Below, piece by piece: positions 2,448 through 53,182 of a DNA stretch of 64,000 bases. The DNA comes from Escherichia phage EC121. The DNA lies in the sequence record NC_054909.1; one strand, written 5' to 3'. The translations under genes and the position numbers were made by a program. The notes beneath the pieces were generated by a model. That model worked only from the letters and a program-made list of their open reading frames with translations. It had not been told where the DNA came from and made no database searches. Positions within the stretch are counted from its first letter, which is position 1; the number at the start of each line of letters is the position of its first letter.

Positions 2448-4264
2448 TACTGGCTCATCCATTCTTTACGAAGGTCAGCATTATCCCCCATGAGCATTTC
2501 AAAAAGCTCTTTCCAATTCTCAGGAAGTTTAACAACATCATATACTGGGTTTTGAATCATCTCACGATATTCAGATTTTTCCAAAGAGCCAAGTCCCTTA
2601 ATATAACGGATGCTATGTTTAGGTAGAGCATCTTTGGCACTCTCATATTCAGCGACCGTATAAAACCATTCTTGTTTTTTACCGACCTGAGCGATGATTA
2701 CGGGAGTTTTGACGAAGCGAATTCTTCCTTGTTCAAACAGTTCTGGCCAATTACTAAAAAATCCGAGCAGAGAAGGATAAATGCTTCCTAGACCATCGTG
2801 GTCAGCATCAGTCATAATAGCAATATTATGATAATTCAAGTTTTCAGCCTTTTCACCAAGAACTAATCCAGTGATTGCGCAAATATCAAACAGTTCTTTG
2901 TTTTTAAGCATATCAGCATATGACATACCCCAACTGTTGAGAACTTTACCACGTAATGGATAACCGCCATGAAGTTCTTTATCACGAACATCAATAAGAT
3001 ATCCGATAGCAGAATCACCCTCAGTCAAGAAAAGAGTAGTGTCAGCGTCTTTACCGCAAAGATTCGCTTTAATATGTTTATGAACCTTAGCTTTAGAAGC
3101 CTTTTTAGCTGCTTTAGTTTCTGCTGCCTTTTCTGCCGCCAATTTACGAGCCAAAGCAGCTTCAATAATTGGCATTAAAATTGCTTCATTATTTAAAATA
3201 GCACGTGAAATCTTTTTAGCATCAAGCTGAATATGACTACGAATTTCACCAAATGGAGAAGTCAAACGCTCTTTAGTCTGAGAATCAAATCGCATGTTTT
3301 TCATATCACGAACAAACATAACGATAGTCAAACATTCTTTAACCCGTGCTTTAGTTACATCAATTTTGAACTTACGTTTGATTTGTGGAATAAGGTCTTC
3401 ACAAATATCATCCATAACGCAGTCAATGTGATGGCCGCCATTCTTAGTATGAATGTTATTAACGTATGTTAATTGACGAAAACCATCCAGTGAACGACCA
3501 ATCGCAATAGAACAATTTTCTTGTTCTTGAACGATAGCATGCTCATCATATTGGCGTGCGTATTTCTTAAAATTGCCCTGAACCTTTTTACCATTAAAGG
3601 TAAATTGAATATCAGGATAAACTACTGCAAGTGTCTGGAGACGATCTAGTGTAATGTCAAGATAAACCTGAGATAGCTCATTAGTTTCAAATGACATAAA
3701 ATCAGGAATGAAAGTAACACGAGTTCCTTTCCATTTTCCAGGAATAGTTTCCCATGATTTATTTTCCATGCCATTTGAACAACGAACTACAATATTATTT
3801 TGACCATCGCCAGTTTCACCGACAAACATCACAGAAAAAATGTTAGTTAAACTAGAACCAACACCGTTCATACCGCCAGTGACGCGTTCTTTATCATCAC
3901 CGAAGTTACCACCTGCTTTTGGAATAGTCCAGGCGGCAACAGGACCAGGAATTTCTTCGCCAGTAGGTGTTTTAACCATCGCTTGTGGAATACCACGACC
4001 GTTATCTTCAACAGTTACTTGATTGTTTTTAATAGTAACATTAATTTTATTCGCGAATTTAAACTTAGTACGAATACCTTCATCTACCGAGTTATCGATA
4101 ATTTCATCAATAAGCTTAACAAGACCAGGTACATACTGAACACTTTCCCATTTACCAAACAGAAAGCGCTCATGCATTTCATTAGCGGAAGAGCCAATGT
4201 ACATGCCGCTACGCTTTTTGATATGTTCAATATCGCTCAGAATTTTAATTTCATTCTTAATCAT
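2447..4264 (-). CDS. 39: DNA topoisomerase II large subunit, uninterrupted gp39 (T4 gene 39 plus gene 60 as one ORF)
   Basis: 605 aa from ATG at 4264 (track start 4267 is GTG); GyrB-like ATPase N-terminus; C-terminal 160 aa matches recalled T4 gp60 with no bypass gap or mobA insertion. Confidence 0.92.
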   Translation of the reverse strand: MIKNEIKILSDIEHIKKRSGMYIGSSANEMHERFLFGKWESVQYVPGLVKLIDEIIDNSVDEGIRTKFKFANKINVTIKNNQVTVEDNGRGIPQAMVKTPTGEEIPGPVAAWTIPKAGGNFGDDKERVTGGMNGVGSSLTNIFSVMFVGETGDGQNNIVVRCSNGMENKSWETIPGKWKGTRVTFIPDFMSFETNELSQVYLDITLDRLQTLAVVYPDIQFTFNGKKVQGNFKKYARQYDEHAIVQEQENCSIAIGRSLDGFRQLTYVNNIHTKNGGHHIDCVMDDICEDLIPQIKRKFKIDVTKARVKECLTIVMFVRDMKNMRFDSQTKERLTSPFGEIRSHIQLDAKKISRAILNNEAILMPIIEAALARKLAAEKAAETKAAKKASKAKVHKHIKANLCGKDADTTLFLTEGDSAIGYLIDVRDKELHGGYPLRGKVLNSWGMSYADMLKNKELFDICAITGLVLGEKAENLNYHNIAIMTDADHDGLGSIYPSLLGFFSNWPELFEQGRIRFVKTPVIIAQVGKKQEWFYTVAEYESAKDALPKHSIRYIKGLGSLEKSEYREMIQNPVYDVVKLPENWKELFEMLMGDNADLRKEWMSQ

Positions 4265-15303: not shown

Positions 15304-15822
15304 TTAATAACCTCGGTCTTGACGAGCGAAGTTTTCAGCATTTTTCAGATAATAAAGTTTAAAGATTTCTTCAGCCGTAAGACCGAGACCTTGGAACATG
15401 TTCAGAACGAAATGAAGAATATCAATCATTTCGAATTTAATTTCCAACTGGTCTTGTGGAGATAAATCAGTAATCAGAGTTTCACGACGTTCACCGTGTT
15501 GCGACTTCCAAGGCTTCCATACAGCAGACGCATCTTTTTCGCCATTGCTCATACCACCAAGAGAAGTCAGAAGTTCGCGGAATTCATCATCAATATAATC
15601 TTTCTGATTACGCAGCCAATCAACAACTTCACCTGCAGTAGCCAAATCATCAGGATGACGGTTATATTCAGGTTTATCTTTAGCTAAACGAACTTGCAGA
15701 GATTTCTGCATATCAAGCATAACCTGCAGCGGGTCTTTTTCATCACCGAGAATATCCCAGTATTCATTTTGAGCTTTATCAGCGCCTTCAATCAGTTGAC
15801 TACATTCGTTAAAGTATGCCAT
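15304..15822 (-). CDS. 56: dCTPase/dUTPase gp56
   Basis: 172 aa from ATG at 15822 (track over-extends with a hydrophobic N-terminus); matches recalled T4 gp56; GAAAGGA RBS. Confidence 0.9.
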   Translation of the reverse strand: MAYFNECSQLIEGADKAQNEYWDILGDEKDPLQVMLDMQKSLQVRLAKDKPEYNRHPDDLATAGEVVDWLRNQKDYIDDEFRELLTSLGGMSNGEKDASAVWKPWKSQHGERRETLITDLSPQDQLEIKFEMIDILHFVLNMFQGLGLTAEEIFKLYYLKNAENFARQDRGY

Positions 15823-15855
15823 TATTTTTCCTTTCAATTCATGGGTTAGTAGATT

Positions 15856-15880
15856 AATTATACAATAAATATATAAAGCA
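15856..15880 (-). promoter_or_regulatory. candidate MotA-dependent middle promoter for gene 56
   Basis: Minus strand TTGCTTTA (MotA box), 11 nt, TATAAT. Confidence 0.5.
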
Positions 15881-15893
15881 ATAAGGAGGATAT

Positions 15894-16094
15894 ATGGTAC
15901 AAAAATTAATGGCACTTGTTAATGCCATAAAAGGTAATAAAAAACGTATAGCTTTTACTATTTCTGCTATGGTAGGAATTTTACTCTGGAATTTTGTTTT
16001 ATCACCAATTGCTATTGCTCATGGTGTTAATATTCCAGTAATTACTCTTGATACATTCGTAGATTTAGCATTTGCTTTAGTTGGGTTAATTTAA
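15894..16094 (+). CDS. small hydrophobic protein encoded on the plus strand
   Basis: 66-aa ORF with strong SD AAGGAGGA 4 nt before the ATG; two predicted TM segments; sits in a 270-nt gap with no minus-strand ORF. Confidence 0.45.
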   Translation: MVQKLMALVNAIKGNKKRIAFTISAMVGILLWNFVLSPIAIAHGVNIPVITLDTFVDLAFALVGLI

Positions 16095-17119
16095 ATCTTA
16101 GCATATTTAGATAGCCGCATTTTAGCCATCAACCCTTGAGCAATATTATTTTTCATATATTCCATAATTTGTTCAGGGGTTGCACCTTCCTTTCTAATCA
16201 TATCATTAACATCTTTTGATTTCCAGGGAGATTTGTCCCAAAACATAACCCTTTCTCCTGCATCAACTAATTTAGTCATTCGTTTAATAGTGTCAGGGTG
16301 ACGAGGTTCATTATCTAAAACCCATACACGTCTATCTTTAAATGGAACAATTTCTAGGTCTAATTGACCACCCGTAATAGCTATACCATTTTCAATAAAA
16401 AGTGAATCTATAGGTCCTTCTAGAACATATACATCACCATCTTTGACTCGTTCAACTCCATAGATTTTTGTTGCCTCAGGATAAGCTTTGATGGTGATAT
16501 ATTTTTGAGGAGCATCTTTCTTTAATGCACGTCCTTGAAAAGACTCGGCTTTTCCGTTAGCATTATAAATTGGAATAACAAGACGAGGCTCGGGCATTTC
16601 CTTTTTATATGTTCCTGGCGCTATACTATTAACTAATTTAGGCCATTCGGTTGTAAACCAAAGATATTTCCATTTATCCTTTGGAATACAACGAGCTTTT
16701 ACATATTTTATAATTGGATGGTCTTCCGCCAGTTTATCTAGTCTAATGCATGACGGAAGAGATTTAATTATTTTCTTCTCAGGTTGTTTAGAAAGTTCTT
16801 TAGGTTTTTCTACTGGACGACTTTTACCTTTTTCTTTTCTTATTTCAAAGATATACTCACGATATAAATCAGGTTCAAACTCCTTTAAATATATTCCGAT
16901 TGGTGCATGATAGTTACAGTTATAACAATGAATATTTCCTTCATTATTATCGCCATAATACCATCCACGGGCTTTATTTTGATCGGTTTTTGAATCTCCA
17001 CAAACAGGACATCTAAACCGTAATTTAAAAGTTGAACTATTATTTACTTGTGCGAATTTAGGTAAATGAGCTAATGCACGGTATGCAAACTCATTATCAA
17101 TCCAAGGTATTGATGACAT
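16091..17119 (-). CDS. 61: DNA primase gp61
   Basis: 342 aa; zinc ribbon CPVCGDS...CYNC and TOPRIM region; matches recalled T4 gp61. Confidence 0.96.
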   Translation of the reverse strand: MSSIPWIDNEFAYRALAHLPKFAQVNNSSTFKLRFRCPVCGDSKTDQNKARGWYYGDNNEGNIHCYNCNYHAPIGIYLKEFEPDLYREYIFEIRKEKGKSRPVEKPKELSKQPEKKIIKSLPSCIRLDKLAEDHPIIKYVKARCIPKDKWKYLWFTTEWPKLVNSIAPGTYKKEMPEPRLVIPIYNANGKAESFQGRALKKDAPQKYITIKAYPEATKIYGVERVKDGDVYVLEGPIDSLFIENGIAITGGQLDLEIVPFKDRRVWVLDNEPRHPDTIKRMTKLVDAGERVMFWDKSPWKSKDVNDMIRKEGATPEQIMEYMKNNIAQGLMAKMRLSKYAKI

Positions 17120-17121
17120 TT

Positions 17122-17286
17122 TTACTCTTCTTTTTCTTTAGATTCCTCTTTTTTCTTTTTAGGAATCTGTTCAGGACCTTTATTTACTACAGCGCCTGAC
17201 GTTGTTCCAGTGGAGATATTTTCAGGATTACCACCTGAATCTCCAGCTACCATATCTTCTTTGATAAATTCTTTATATGTTTTCAT
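17122..17286 (-). CDS. small Lys/Glu-rich protein
   Basis: 54-aa ORF not in the track; 2-nt spacers to both neighbours. Confidence 0.4.
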   Translation of the reverse strand: MKTYKEFIKEDMVAGDSGGNPENISTGTTSGAVVNKGPEQIPKKKKEESKEKEE

Positions 17287-17287
17287 A

Positions 17288-17914
17288 TTAACCTCTATTC
17301 ATAAAAGCATTAAAAATTTGGTCATCAATAGAAACATTTACTTTAGACTGTTTTTCTGATGGTAATTCATATCCACATATTACAATTTTGTGATCAATAT
17401 CAAAATACACAGAAGCAATATGATTAATGATGTTTTCAGTAAAGTCTAAATCAACATCAATATCTTTTTGACCACAGCCCAAAGGATAAATAATGCGAGT
17501 AATTCGATTATCTTTAACAAAGATTCCACCGATATACTCTGTGCTGCGTTTAAAGTCTACACGCCGACGAAATGAAAAATATTCAGGCTCTTTATGAGCT
17601 CTGCTCATAGGACACAACGAGTAACTAGAATAAGAGATGTCAAATCCTACGCCTTCGATATGAGCCAAAGTGTCATGATTAAACCAATTATAATCGTACG
17701 CCAAATCCATTAGATTATAATATGTAAAGGGCACCGGATTAACATCATTAGTCACAAGCATGTAATTAGCAACTGCTATAATTTCATTGTTTTTAACGAA
17801 TACAAACCGTGATTGATGTGAATGACCTGGACCCGCGTTTTCACGATTAATGATATAACACTGGGCACCTTTATATTTGTATGTATCTTTGCACTTGTGC
17901 ATTTGATAGAGCAT
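17288..17914 (-). CDS. hypothetical protein (61.x region)
   Basis: 208-aa ORF between spackle and primase. Confidence 0.55.
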   Translation of the reverse strand: MLYQMHKCKDTYKYKGAQCYIINRENAGPGHSHQSRFVFVKNNEIIAVANYMLVTNDVNPVPFTYYNLMDLAYDYNWFNHDTLAHIEGVGFDISYSSYSLCPMSRAHKEPEYFSFRRRVDFKRSTEYIGGIFVKDNRITRIIYPLGCGQKDIDVDLDFTENIINHIASVYFDIDHKIVICGYELPSEKQSKVNVSIDDQIFNAFMNRG

Positions 17915-18207
17915 TATTCACCTACCACTTCAGCGATGATATTTTTATTATTAAAGTTTTTATCGCAATACAGAACATAATTATACTGCATTACACCACC
18001 AGACTTAAGCTGTTTTTGCACTTCAGCTTTCATTTCAGGACGGTCACGCTCAACGATATTCATAATATCTGCTTCAATTTGAGTTTCAACTTCAGTCTGA
18101 TCTGCAGTCATAGACCACTCGCACAAATCTTTGTCATAACCCGCCATAGCAGGCTGAGCAGCGCAAGAAGATAAAGCAAAAATTGCAGCAAAGATAAATT
18201 TTTTCAT
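17914..18207 (-). CDS. sp: spackle periplasmic protein Sp (superinfection exclusion, lysozyme inhibitor)
   Basis: 97 aa with signal peptide; near-identical to recalled T4 Sp. Confidence 0.9.
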   Translation of the reverse strand: MKKFIFAAIFALSSCAAQPAMAGYDKDLCEWSMTADQTEVETQIEADIMNIVERDRPEMKAEVQKQLKSGGVMQYNYVLYCDKNFNNKNIIAEVVGE

Positions 18208-20204: not shown

Positions 20205-20549
20205 TTAAAAGAATTTAAATTTTTTCTTTGACCTTTTATTAAATGCATCTTGTAGTTGCATTGTAATACATTTTTCTACATGAGGAGCTAACTCAGCTTT
20301 TCTTTCTTGGTCAAGAACAGCAAAGTCCATTACGACTTTTCCATCAACCCAATCTAATTTTGTCACATACACAATGTGTGTAGAACCGTCTTCTAGTTTA
20401 ATGACAATCTCCTGGATAACATTTTCCATGGCAGATTTAATTATCTTAAGAGATTCATTAAAAAGACGTTCTTTTCTTTCTTCTTCCCCCTCCGAAGAGG
20501 GGGATTCATCGATAATTTCTAGATCTAAATCTAAATCATCTTTATTCAT
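20205..20549 (-). CDS. 40: gp40 head vertex assembly chaperone
   Basis: 114 aa from ATG at 20549; position between uvsX and 41. Confidence 0.7.
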   Translation of the reverse strand: MNKDDLDLDLEIIDESPSSEGEEERKERLFNESLKIIKSAMENVIQEIVIKLEDGSTHIVYVTKLDWVDGKVVMDFAVLDQERKAELAPHVEKCITMQLQDAFNKRSKKKFKFF

Positions 20550-21723
20550 TAAATTCTTCCATATCACTTAACTGATCTAGGTCAGTTTCTAAATCAGCTG
20601 CTGATTTACTTTTACTTTCTGGAGATTTAAATTTTTCAACCTTTGAGTTAATCAATTCATCAACTTCAGCTTCAACAATTTCATTACTATCAATAGCACC
20701 TAACTGATAAGCACGTTTAATAGCATCTCGGAATGGTTGATGCTTAAATAAAGGACCCCAGAATGTAGTGCAATTGGTATCTTTTGCACGCCAAGATTTT
20801 TCTTCGCGAATCATCTCGCCGGTTTCTTCGTCAAGAAATTCACGAGCATACCAGCCATTTTTAGGTTTTACCACAAATCCTAATTCAAGAGCCATATCTA
20901 ACAATCCAGAATAAGGATCGATACCACCGTCAAATTTAACATCAATAAAGAATTTACTTTTTTCTTTAACGGTACGAGATTTTTCTACATTTAGAACAAA
21001 TTGATACCCCTGAAGATCAGAACCATCTTTAATCTGGCGCTTACCGATAATGAATACAGTATCAGCCGAATACATTACGCCTGTACCACCTGTCATCACG
21101 GTTTTACTAAACATTTCAATTGTTTCAATTGTATGGTTAACCGCAACACATGGAATGTTTTTAATACTAAAATAAGGAGTAACAATACGGAATAATGACT
21201 TCAGTGATTTAGCACGAGTCATATCTGCCACAGATTTTTCATTCAAGGCATCTTCCGTTTCTTTCTTAGAAGCCATATTACCAATTGAGTCGATGAATAC
21301 AATAACTTTTTCACCACGCTCAATAGCTTCAAGCTGATTCACCATATCAATTTTCAGCTGTTCAACTGACTGGATTGGTGTATGAATTACTCGTTCCGGG
21401 TCAACTCCCATGGATCGCAAATAAGCTGGAGTAATACCAAATTCGCTATCATAGAATAGACATACCGCGTCAGGATATTTGTTCAAATACGCCGCAACCA
21501 TAGTCAAAGACATATTTGATTTAAAGTGTTTAGAAGGACCTGCAAAAATGGTTAAACCAGACTGCATACCACCGTCAATCGCACCAGAAATAGCGATATT
21601 AAGCATTGGGATTTTTGTACGGATTACATCCTTTTCATTAAAGAATTTAGATGTAGTCAGTTCAGCAGTCATTTTAGAAGTGGAAGCTTTAATCAAACGG
21701 GATTTTAAATCTGCAATAGACAT
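20542..21723 (-). CDS. uvsX: UvsX recombinase (RecA-like)
   Basis: 393 aa; matches recalled T4 UvsX along its length. Confidence 0.97.
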   Translation of the reverse strand: MSIADLKSRLIKASTSKMTAELTTSKFFNEKDVIRTKIPMLNIAISGAIDGGMQSGLTIFAGPSKHFKSNMSLTMVAAYLNKYPDAVCLFYDSEFGITPAYLRSMGVDPERVIHTPIQSVEQLKIDMVNQLEAIERGEKVIVFIDSIGNMASKKETEDALNEKSVADMTRAKSLKSLFRIVTPYFSIKNIPCVAVNHTIETIEMFSKTVMTGGTGVMYSADTVFIIGKRQIKDGSDLQGYQFVLNVEKSRTVKEKSKFFIDVKFDGGIDPYSGLLDMALELGFVVKPKNGWYAREFLDEETGEMIREEKSWRAKDTNCTTFWGPLFKHQPFRDAIKRAYQLGAIDSNEIVEAEVDELINSKVEKFKSPESKSKSAADLETDLDQLSDMEEFNE

Positions 21724-51693: not shown

Positions 51694-52008
51694 CTAAAAG
51701 AAACTTCTTTCACAATTTTTTCCACTGAACCATGCGCTCACTGCTTTCTTAGTCTCAGGAGCAGTGTTATCCATAAACCATTCAAAGGCAGCCTTTTTAT
51801 GATTCTGGAGGGCTTCTCGGGCTTTAATCTGCTCACGGTCTATTAACACTAACATATGAGCCTTTCTTGTCACCATGGGCTTCTTATGATTTTTTGAATA
51901 CTCCCAATCATTTGTCCATCGCATTGTTGTTGCGAACTGAAATACTGCTTCTTTAATTTTAGTTTCGTAAATTTCACGAGCCTTTGAGTATAACATCACT
52001 ACCTCCAT
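51694..52008 (-). CDS. hypothetical protein
   Basis: 104-aa ORF. Confidence 0.45.
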   Translation of the reverse strand: MEVVMLYSKAREIYETKIKEAVFQFATTMRWTNDWEYSKNHKKPMVTRKAHMLVLIDREQIKAREALQNHKKAAFEWFMDNTAPETKKAVSAWFSGKNCERSFF

Positions 52009-52097: not shown

Positions 52098-52841
52098 TTA
52101 TTTCAGAAGAGTAACCTCAGCGATTTCTTCCCAACCGTTTTTGTCGGTCATAATAAAGTCAGCAAGATAAAGAGCAGTACGCAGTGAAACATTGCGTAAA
52201 CGATTAACATTGACTTTCATCCATGATAATGCTTTATAAGTTTCTTCATCAGAAAGACCGCGCTTTTGCATCATGTCAGTTGAAAGAATAACATCTTCAA
52301 CCCTGACCATAATTTCTTCATTAGTGTGAACACCCAAATCCAAATAAACTGAGCGGGACACTAATGCTTGTAAATGTGGAGCAAGTTTAGTACCACGGTC
52401 TAATTCGCGGTCAATATCAACGTTTGTGATAAAAACAATAGTTCCTTTAAATTCAAACTCGCGCTCAATGCCTTTTTCTTCTAAGTAAGAAGATGCAGTG
52501 CTCCAGCAGACTTTACGGGTCTCTCCAGTGTCCAGAGCAGCTTTTAGAAGATTAAGAATGTCCATATCAGAGAAAACATCCACATCATCAATCAAAAGGA
52601 CAGAATTCTCTTCACGATTATTCCAAAGCTGTTCATAAAGACCAATACCAGAGATTTTACCATTAATGCTTTTATACTCAATGTATCCAATATCATTTGC
52701 TTTATTTAAAGCTTTATCTAAAGAATACGTTTTACCAATACCTGCTGCTCCCGAGATAATTAATGAACGAATGTTTCCGTTAATAATACCATTCGTCATC
52801 ATTCCCATAACATTAAATCTTTTATTAATGCGGGTTTTCAT
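52098..52841 (-). CDS. P-loop NTPase (AAA-like ATPase), 5-prime end unresolved
   Basis: 247 aa; Walker A SGAAGIGKT and Walker B VLLIDDVD; the frame stays open for about 68 codons upstream with no start codon. Confidence 0.6.
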   Translation of the reverse strand: MKTRINKRFNVMGMMTNGIINGNIRSLIISGAAGIGKTYSLDKALNKANDIGYIEYKSINGKISGIGLYEQLWNNREENSVLLIDDVDVFSDMDILNLLKAALDTGETRKVCWSTASSYLEEKGIEREFEFKGTIVFITNVDIDRELDRGTKLAPHLQALVSRSVYLDLGVHTNEEIMVRVEDVILSTDMMQKRGLSDEETYKALSWMKVNVNRLRNVSLRTALYLADFIMTDKNGWEEIAEVTLLK

Positions 52842-52996
52842 ATCTTCATACGATTCTTTAACTTCTTCAACTTTTACACCATCATATGAAATGTCTGATT
52901 TGTAAACCCAAACACCGCGACGCTTACCGTCAATTTCAACAAAAACTTTACCATCTCCTTGTGCATCTACCGGAGCATTATCTGGGAACCATTCGC

Positions 52997-53068
52997 CTAA
53001 GAGTTCAAAAGTTCCAGAGATTTCTTTACCGAAGTAGATACCCTCTTATTGATAGTTACAGTTTTCAT
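52997..53068 (-). other. 23-codon leader ORF behind cassette copy C
   Basis: ATG with GGAGAA RBS encodes MKTVTINKRVSTSVKKSLELLNS; it overlaps, in another frame, the open upstream extension of the ATPase ORF. Confidence 0.35.
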
Positions 53069-53150
53069 TTTATTCTCCAAATCTATATCAGTTGATAGTT
53101 GTATAGTACCATAAAGCTTTATGCTTGTAAACAGTTTTGTGAAAAATTTT
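53069..53150 (-). repeat. promoter-leader cassette copy C
   Basis: TTTTTCACAAAACTGTTTAC, 17 nt, GGTACTATACAACTATCAACTGATATAGATTTGGAGAATAAAATG. Confidence 0.6.
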
Positions 53151-53162
53151 TGAAATAAAAAA

Positions 53163-53180
53163 GGGAGCCCGAAGGCTCCC
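53163..53180 (-). terminator. intrinsic terminator after the NTase-fold gene
   Basis: GGGAGCC-UUCG-GGCUCCC followed by UUUUUU on the minus-strand RNA. Confidence 0.6.
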
Positions 53181-53182
53181 TA

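Follow-up and report, generated by a model that had tools for sequence, protein, structure and literature searches.

A 2-bp tandem duplication disrupts nrdC.10, the gene of a predicted AAA+ ATPase, in the genome sequence of the T4-like Escherichia phage EC121

The nrdC.10 gene of bacteriophage T4 (T4p094, NP_049708) is 978 nt long; nrdC.10 was reported to match an AAA-ATPase motif and to be present in 3 of 6 T4-like genomes (PMC1524935). In the accessible part of a paper on the reduction of the T4 genome, the listed deletions flank nrdC.10 and the gene itself is unnamed. Literature searches under other names of nrdC.10 found nothing functional. Two kinds of recoding system invite comparison with a gene whose reading frame changes close to its start. 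In programmed -1 frameshifting sites (dnaX of E. coli, IS elements, the tail-chaperone genes G/GT of phages) two frames with a -1 offset overlap, and a conserved slippery heptamer and a stimulatory structure accompany the overlap. In the translational bypass of gene 60 of T4, the early interruption of the coding sequence is a conserved gap of 50 nt between take-off and landing codons that match each other, and a hairpin and a stop codon right after the take-off codon belong to it. The locus described here shares with the former the overlapping -1 frames and an A_AAG context, but it has neither a conserved heptamer nor a stimulatory structure, and its offset comes from a unique insertion. With gene 60 it shares the phage group and the early interruption, but the interruption measures 2 nt, displays none of the features of the bypass, has no stop codon after codon 8 and is found in one genome only.

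The DNA analyzed in this work, a stretch of 64,000 nt from Escherichia phage EC121 (NC_054909.1; referred to below as the window), belongs to a Tequatrovirus (T4-like) genome. Over 24 kb its identity to phage e11/2 and others is ~96%, and the sequences are collinear from rIIA onward. The split gene, nrdC.10, lies on the minus strand between nrdC.11 (a RlaP-type nucleotidyltransferase, Pfam PF10127) and nrdC.9 (DUF7203), a position conserved in the relatives. The terminator, the promoter-like site, the Shine-Dalgarno sequence, the ATG and the placement between these two neighbors are the same as in nrdC.10 of T4 and its orthologues, and the NrdC.10 protein of phage KMB42 is 99% identical to the window over the aligned 315 residues. 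A single CDS of 969 nt (322 codons), with a start codon corresponding to ATG 53068, is annotated in phages KMB42, G8, AugustSocin, e11/2, KMB23 and ESh18. The annotated relatives examined carry an intact gene of 969-978 nt, whereas the copy in the window has a 2-bp insertion at codon 9 and a broken ORF.

Comparison with e11/2 revealed a few further differences in gene content. At 15880-16095, in the junction of gene 56 (15304..15915) and the primase gene 61 (16091..17119), the window has no gene for the DNA adenine methyltransferase Dam, and the hypothetical ORF found beside the Dam gene in e11/2 (fetched e11/2 locus, 16835-18174) is likewise missing; only a small plus-strand ORF of 66 aa is present between gene 56 and gene 61. 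At 2780-2850 the window has no gene for the MobE homing endonuclease, which in e11/2 is located beside gene 39 (fetched e11/2 locus, 2784-3890). Residues 1-473 of the 516 residues encoded by gene 39 of e11/2 (topoisomerase large subunit) align to the window, and the C-terminal end does not. The nrdC.9 gene of the window (51694-52008) encodes 104 aa, compared to 100-104 aa in most relatives and 125 aa in e11/2 (fetched locus, 20531-20908). Since the e11/2 gene reads into nrdC.8 via a 1-nt indel (corresponding to window position 51721), it is the copy of e11/2 that is odd, and not that of the window.

The original prediction, made from the letters of the window and its ORFs, described an ATPase frame that remains open upstream of its ATG at 52841 and overlaps a well-signalled 23-codon ORF in another frame; our analysis confirmed this layout. 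The upstream extension comprises 68 open sense codons (53045..52842, EGIYFGKE...KESYED, as quoted in the prediction), none of which is ATG, GTG or TTG (0/68), and the frame is closed upstream of it by TAA at 53048-53046. Downstream of this TAA the first start codon is the ATG at 52841, and it opens an ORF of 247 aa (52098..52841). The short ORF from ATG 53068 is in a different frame and runs for 23 codons (MKTVTINKRVSTSVKKSLELLNS) to the TAG at 52999-52997. The ATPase frame, shifted by -1 relative to it, shares 49 nt with this ORF, or 16 codons if the stop is counted (~15 codons had originally been given). The start signals ascribed to ATG 53068, namely GGAG and a promoter-like site, are indeed present upstream of it (Table 1). 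The promoter-like sequence is identical in the relatives and is likely the early promoter of nrdC.10; the terminator of nrdC.11 is annotated in phages G8 and e11/2 as well, at the corresponding position. A stop-free run of 68 codons would arise by chance with P ~0.004, as calculated from the base composition of the window. It is because of its homology, described below, that we regard this stretch as real coding sequence.

Table 1. Features of the nrdC.10 locus and their positions in the window.
Feature	Position	Strand	Remarks
Intrinsic terminator of nrdC.11	53162..53181	-	8-bp G+C-rich stem, 4-nt loop, T-run
Promoter-like TTTACA-17 nt-TACTAT	53103..53131	-	TG upstream of the second hexamer; 9/12 consensus matches
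Shine-Dalgarno GGAG	53075..53078	-	6 nt upstream of ATG 53068; duplex with the 16S 3' tail -6.4 kcal/mol
True nrdC.10 start codon	53066..53068	-	Start of the relatives' 969-nt CDS; PHROG 1250 profile position 1 aligns here
Lesion, AGAG versus AG in relatives	53043..53046	-	2-bp tandem duplication after codon 8 (AAT AAG / AG / GGT)
Frameshifted product	52997..53068	-	8 native codons (MKTVTINK), 15 out-of-frame codons and TAG
Stranded coding sequence, NrdC.10 residues 9-76	52842..53045	-	N-terminal beta-rich domain and linker; open, startless
AAA+ ATPase core, residues 77-322	52098..52841	-	Intact; starts at internal Met77 without Shine-Dalgarno

Base-level alignments and an indel scan identified the position at which the window departs from its relatives: AATAAGGG in the relatives corresponds to AATAAGAGGG in the window, i.e. 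to a tandem duplication of AG at 53043-53046. In the wider context (AATAAGGGTATC in the relatives versus AATAAGAGGGTATC in the window) this is the sole relevant difference at the level of individual bases. Deletion of AG in silico restores an ORF of 322 codons (MKTVTINKGIYFGKE...), and the gene repaired in this way is identical to the KMB42 allele at 968 of 969 positions, with a single base responsible for G versus D at residue 24. Of a 121-nt query, the best matches in a set of 500 matching phage records cover 119 nt each, which means that the two inserted bases are missing in them. A 43-nt probe whose sole 28-nt exact words cross the insertion returned 0 matches in 50,697 phage records, an exact 23-mer with the insertion had no match in IMG/VR contigs, and the Tequatrovirus loci retrieved from IMG/VR and from metagenomes all lack the insertion. 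Two other records in which the gene is apparently split were rejected, as both have an intact nrdC.10 and the extra features correspond to a small spurious ORF in the intergenic region.

NrdC.10 (PHROG 1250) is conserved over its full length. According to the original prediction, the case for an interrupted gene would be lost if orthologues began at the codon corresponding to ATG 52841, with no conservation of the frame upstream of it; we found that they have the earlier start and that the upstream frame is conserved. The PHROG 1250 profile spans residues 1-322, and the near-identical protein of KMB42 aligns to positions 1-327 of the profile (E = 1.6e-166); the N-terminal residues 1-76 alone match the profile with E = 3.1e-18. 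The first 8 codons of the window joined to the stranded frame reproduce the KMB42 protein, with residue 24 (G/D) as the one exception. Thirty-six of the 37 IMG/VR loci are intact in one frame from residue 1 (or 4) to 322, as are all the close and complete metagenome loci. The protein search found 1008 homologues. The query is covered completely (100%) by the homologues with an identity of ~55% or above, which have 321-340 aa and include proteins of Mosigvirus, Winklervirus and phages of Acinetobacter, Aeromonas and Vibrio. One truncated homologue (P0087) is a chimeric call on a contig of 261 kb, and two further short calls lie on contigs of only 1-2 kb; all three were discarded. The representative of the Tequatrovirus NrdC.10 cluster (P0001) has 377 aa, 55 residues more than the annotated 322, presumably as the result of an over-extended start call.

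Between the window and its relatives, codons 1-76 show 0-4 synonymous and at most 1 non-synonymous change, and codons 77-322 show 0-18 synonymous versus 0-4 non-synonymous changes. The predominance of synonymous differences indicates that there has been no decay since the frame was shifted. Both the homology to the whole profile and the position between nrdC.11 and nrdC.9 identify the locus as a member of the NrdC.10 family (PHROG 1250). In place of the single continuous ORF of ~322-340 codons expected of the family, however, the window has a 23-codon ORF and a startless frame of 314 codons. Because the 2-bp insertion splits the gene, what the window contains, as written, is a disrupted copy and not a functional member of the family.

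The product of nrdC.10 is a predicted AAA+ ATPase of 322 residues with a small N-terminal beta-rich domain. The AlphaFold2 model of the stranded frame (mean pLDDT 89.2) begins with the beta-rich domain (strands in residues 2-47), from which a linker leads to a long helix (residues 66-89) and an AAA+ module with its lid, in which the alpha/beta P-loop domain is followed by the helical lid characteristic of AAA+ proteins. The Walker A (GAAGIGKT) and Walker B (LLIDDVDV) motifs are invariant or nearly so in the alignments. Foldseek reported 195 PDB chains at E <= 0.001, with AAA+ proteins ranked at the top. NrdC.10 resembles in fold the initiator/clamp-loader type of AAA+ proteins (ORC/Cdc6, RFC, RuvB, Hda; modules of NSF and dynein; Foldseek probability ~1.0), but its identity to them is only 10-17%, with TM-scores of 0.2-0.45; the resemblance is generic for AAA+ proteins. 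Pfam scores were below the gathering cutoffs (AAA_14: 23.5 bits versus 27; AAA_22: 21.2 versus 27), a weak Pfam match to nSTAND and weak PHROG matches to clamp loaders were obtained, and sequence searches of PDB chains, NCBIfam and PADLOC gave no match to NrdC.10. In distant homologues (27-44% identity) the alignment begins only at about residue 61-80; the N-terminal domain is therefore an addition that, among AAA+ ATPases, is confined to T4-like phages.

Four readings of the two-frame layout had been proposed: a frameshift mutation, a sequencing indel, programmed frameshifting, and a leader peptide accompanied by a truncated ATPase. The AG insertion at codon 9 bears out the first two, while the latter two fail, since the layout is unique and devoid of the appropriate signals. 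In our opinion the window probably records a genuine and very recent loss-of-function (or strongly hypomorphic) mutation of nrdC.10. As written, the locus shows a commonplace disruption of an accessory gene that is already known and is conserved in the relatives, and it represents nothing new in kind. Dinucleotide duplications are a classic product of slippage, and replication slippage after codon 8 may have converted AG to the tandem AGAG. As the sequence reads, ribosomes that start at ATG 53068 stop after 23 codons, and the other 314 codons are left in the -1 frame. Little or no ATPase would then be made, nil or a trace, because ATG 52841 lacks a Shine-Dalgarno sequence (duplex energy of -1.0 kcal/mol, versus -6.4 kcal/mol at ATG 53068) and is located 156 nt past the stop codon of the short ORF. 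The patchy distribution of nrdC.10 and the presence of broken copies in other isolates suggest that the gene may be dispensable for growth. The comparison of the 64 kb with e11/2 at the protein and DNA level detected no second isolated, uncompensated frameshifting indel inside a well-conserved gene body. Other indels whose length is not a multiple of three either compensate each other in pairs within divergent stretches or are located at gene ends, between genes or in variable small ORFs, and one stems from the odd nrdC.9 of e11/2 itself. The occurrence of only one such indel in 64 kb argues against a generally error-prone assembly.

A possible, though in our view less likely, explanation is that the deposited sequence alone contains the extra AG and that the phage itself has AATAAGGG and an intact nrdC.10 of 322 codons. 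An error of sequencing or assembly would account for the absence of the insertion from every other record searched and for the near-perfect agreement of the repaired gene with a known allele, in a gene that is otherwise intact in nearly all sampled relatives; the fact that the stranded frame has not decayed at all is equally compatible with an artefact and with a very recent mutation. However, the change is a duplication of a dinucleotide and not a change in the length of a homopolymer, and such duplications are not a typical error of the common sequencing platforms. The absence of any other isolated frameshifting indel from the well-conserved gene bodies compared with e11/2 also speaks against an artefact, as do the broken 5' ends of nrdC.10 in other phages, one of which has been assembled twice, probably from the same reads.

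These other lesions were found in four phages. An exact-protein look-up of NrdC.11 of the window gave no match, and that of the 247-aa core matched only a different phage, the metagenomic Tequatrovirus YOKO23-1, which has a +1 frameshift of its own, an extra T in codon 11 (ENA scaffold_31, 2774-3012); the same lesion sequence is present in the Logan assembly of SRR22877578 (52-290). Serratia phage 4S (MW082584; fetched locus, 25-160) exhibits a -1 shift in codon 11, and the CHI14-like Logan contig ERR11042067_175 (1127-1260) a -1 shift near codon 28-32. In Klebsiella phage KPV15 (fetched locus, 2270-2310) a deletion of 41 nt between AAA microhomologies removes the ATG through codon 13, and this deletion is unique among 144 Jiaodavirus records. 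All four lesions are independent singletons that differ from each other, and in all four the ORF of the AAA+ core is intact. In two less biased samples, the IMG/VR loci and the metagenome loci, KPV15 is the only broken copy among the full-length loci. As the route by which the lesions were found favors N-terminal truncations, we note their clustering in the first ~30 codons and make no claim of it. Counting the window, five phages from at least three genera carry a lesion upstream of Met77; that the 5' end of nrdC.10 is a recurrent target seems to us doubtful. Such recurrence could reflect selection for loss of the full-length protein or of its N-terminal domain, for instance in escape from host sensing or during laboratory propagation, or it could reflect error-prone recombination at the adjacent terminator-promoter cassette.

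The terminator-promoter cassette between nrdC.11 and nrdC.10 is a variable insertion site for small ORFs in several of these phages. YOKO23-1 has ~490 bp of additional sequence (2270-2759; between the equivalents of window positions 53092 and 53084) with an ORF of 49 aa and a gene for an 87-aa DUF4031 protein. The cassette of KPV15 (1685-2232) contains two ORFs of 71 aa each, and that of the CHI14-like contig (771-1013) an ORF of 80 aa. Promoter-early stem-loop (PeSL) motifs are described as recombination points of T4-type genomes in the accessible parts of two reports (PMC2839356, PMC4122927). As far as these parts go, the cassette looks like an instance of the PeSL-type modular shuffling of T4-type phages.

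It is much less probable that the 23-codon ORF serves as an upstream ORF for a functional core of 247 residues made from ATG 52841, with the loss of the N-terminal domain being selected. The core is intact and an identical protein is encoded in an independently frameshifted phage, the alignment of the 27-44%-identity homologues from about residue 61-80 implies that a core can exist without the N-terminal domain, and the lesions in all five orthologues are upstream of Met77. On the other hand, ATG 52841 has no Shine-Dalgarno sequence, and its distance from the stop codon of the short ORF is too large for termination-reinitiation coupling. Met77 is replaced by L or I in some orthologues and lies within the long helix of the model, not at a domain boundary. 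Each of the 5' lesions is a singleton with no diverged lineage that carries it, and since the lesions were reached through truncated gene calls, the sample is biased towards 5' events.

Programmed or otherwise efficient -1 frameshifting (or +2 hopping) within the 49-nt overlap, with a near-full-length protein as the product, is in our estimate extremely improbable. The required shift is indeed -1, and the zero frame GTA AAG AAA provides an A_AAG lysine-codon context (53027-53024) of the type that is slippery in E. coli (dnaX, IS-element sites). Moreover, the insertion creates a Shine-Dalgarno-like GAGGG ~13 nt upstream of A_AAG (window 53024-53045), and in dnaX Shine-Dalgarno-like elements at such a spacing stimulate -1 shifts. 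However, the two-frame layout occurs in no relative (0/50,697 phage records, and likewise absent from the IMG/VR contigs and from the fetched loci), and a layout that is not conserved cannot be an evolved device. The overlap contains a single A_AAG and no slippery heptamer of the X XXY YYZ form, the 81 nt downstream fold no better than shuffled sequences (MFE of -14.6 versus a shuffle mean of -17.4 kcal/mol, z = +0.94), and Rfam gave no meaningful match. We speculate that A_AAG and GAGGG could support at most a leaky -1 suppression of a few per cent; a -1 slip at A_AAG would join KRVSTSVK-EISGTFELLGEWFPDNAPVDAQGDGK (...RVSTSVKEISG...), where the wild-type junction reads INK-GIYFGK. A regulatory leader peptide was rejected, as the 23-codon ORF is a separate unit in no relative and the same ATG opens the full-length gene there; we consider both a designed leader peptide and programmed frameshifting to be excluded for practical purposes.

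The locus has no bearing on the mechanisms of recoding. We propose that it be annotated as nrdC.10 with a frameshift (a pseudogene or a possible sequencing error), and not as an ATPase of 247 residues accompanied by a small ORF. If the lesion is real, phage EC121 would be a natural nrdC.10 mutant, whose phenotype may be compared with that of its near-isogenic relatives.
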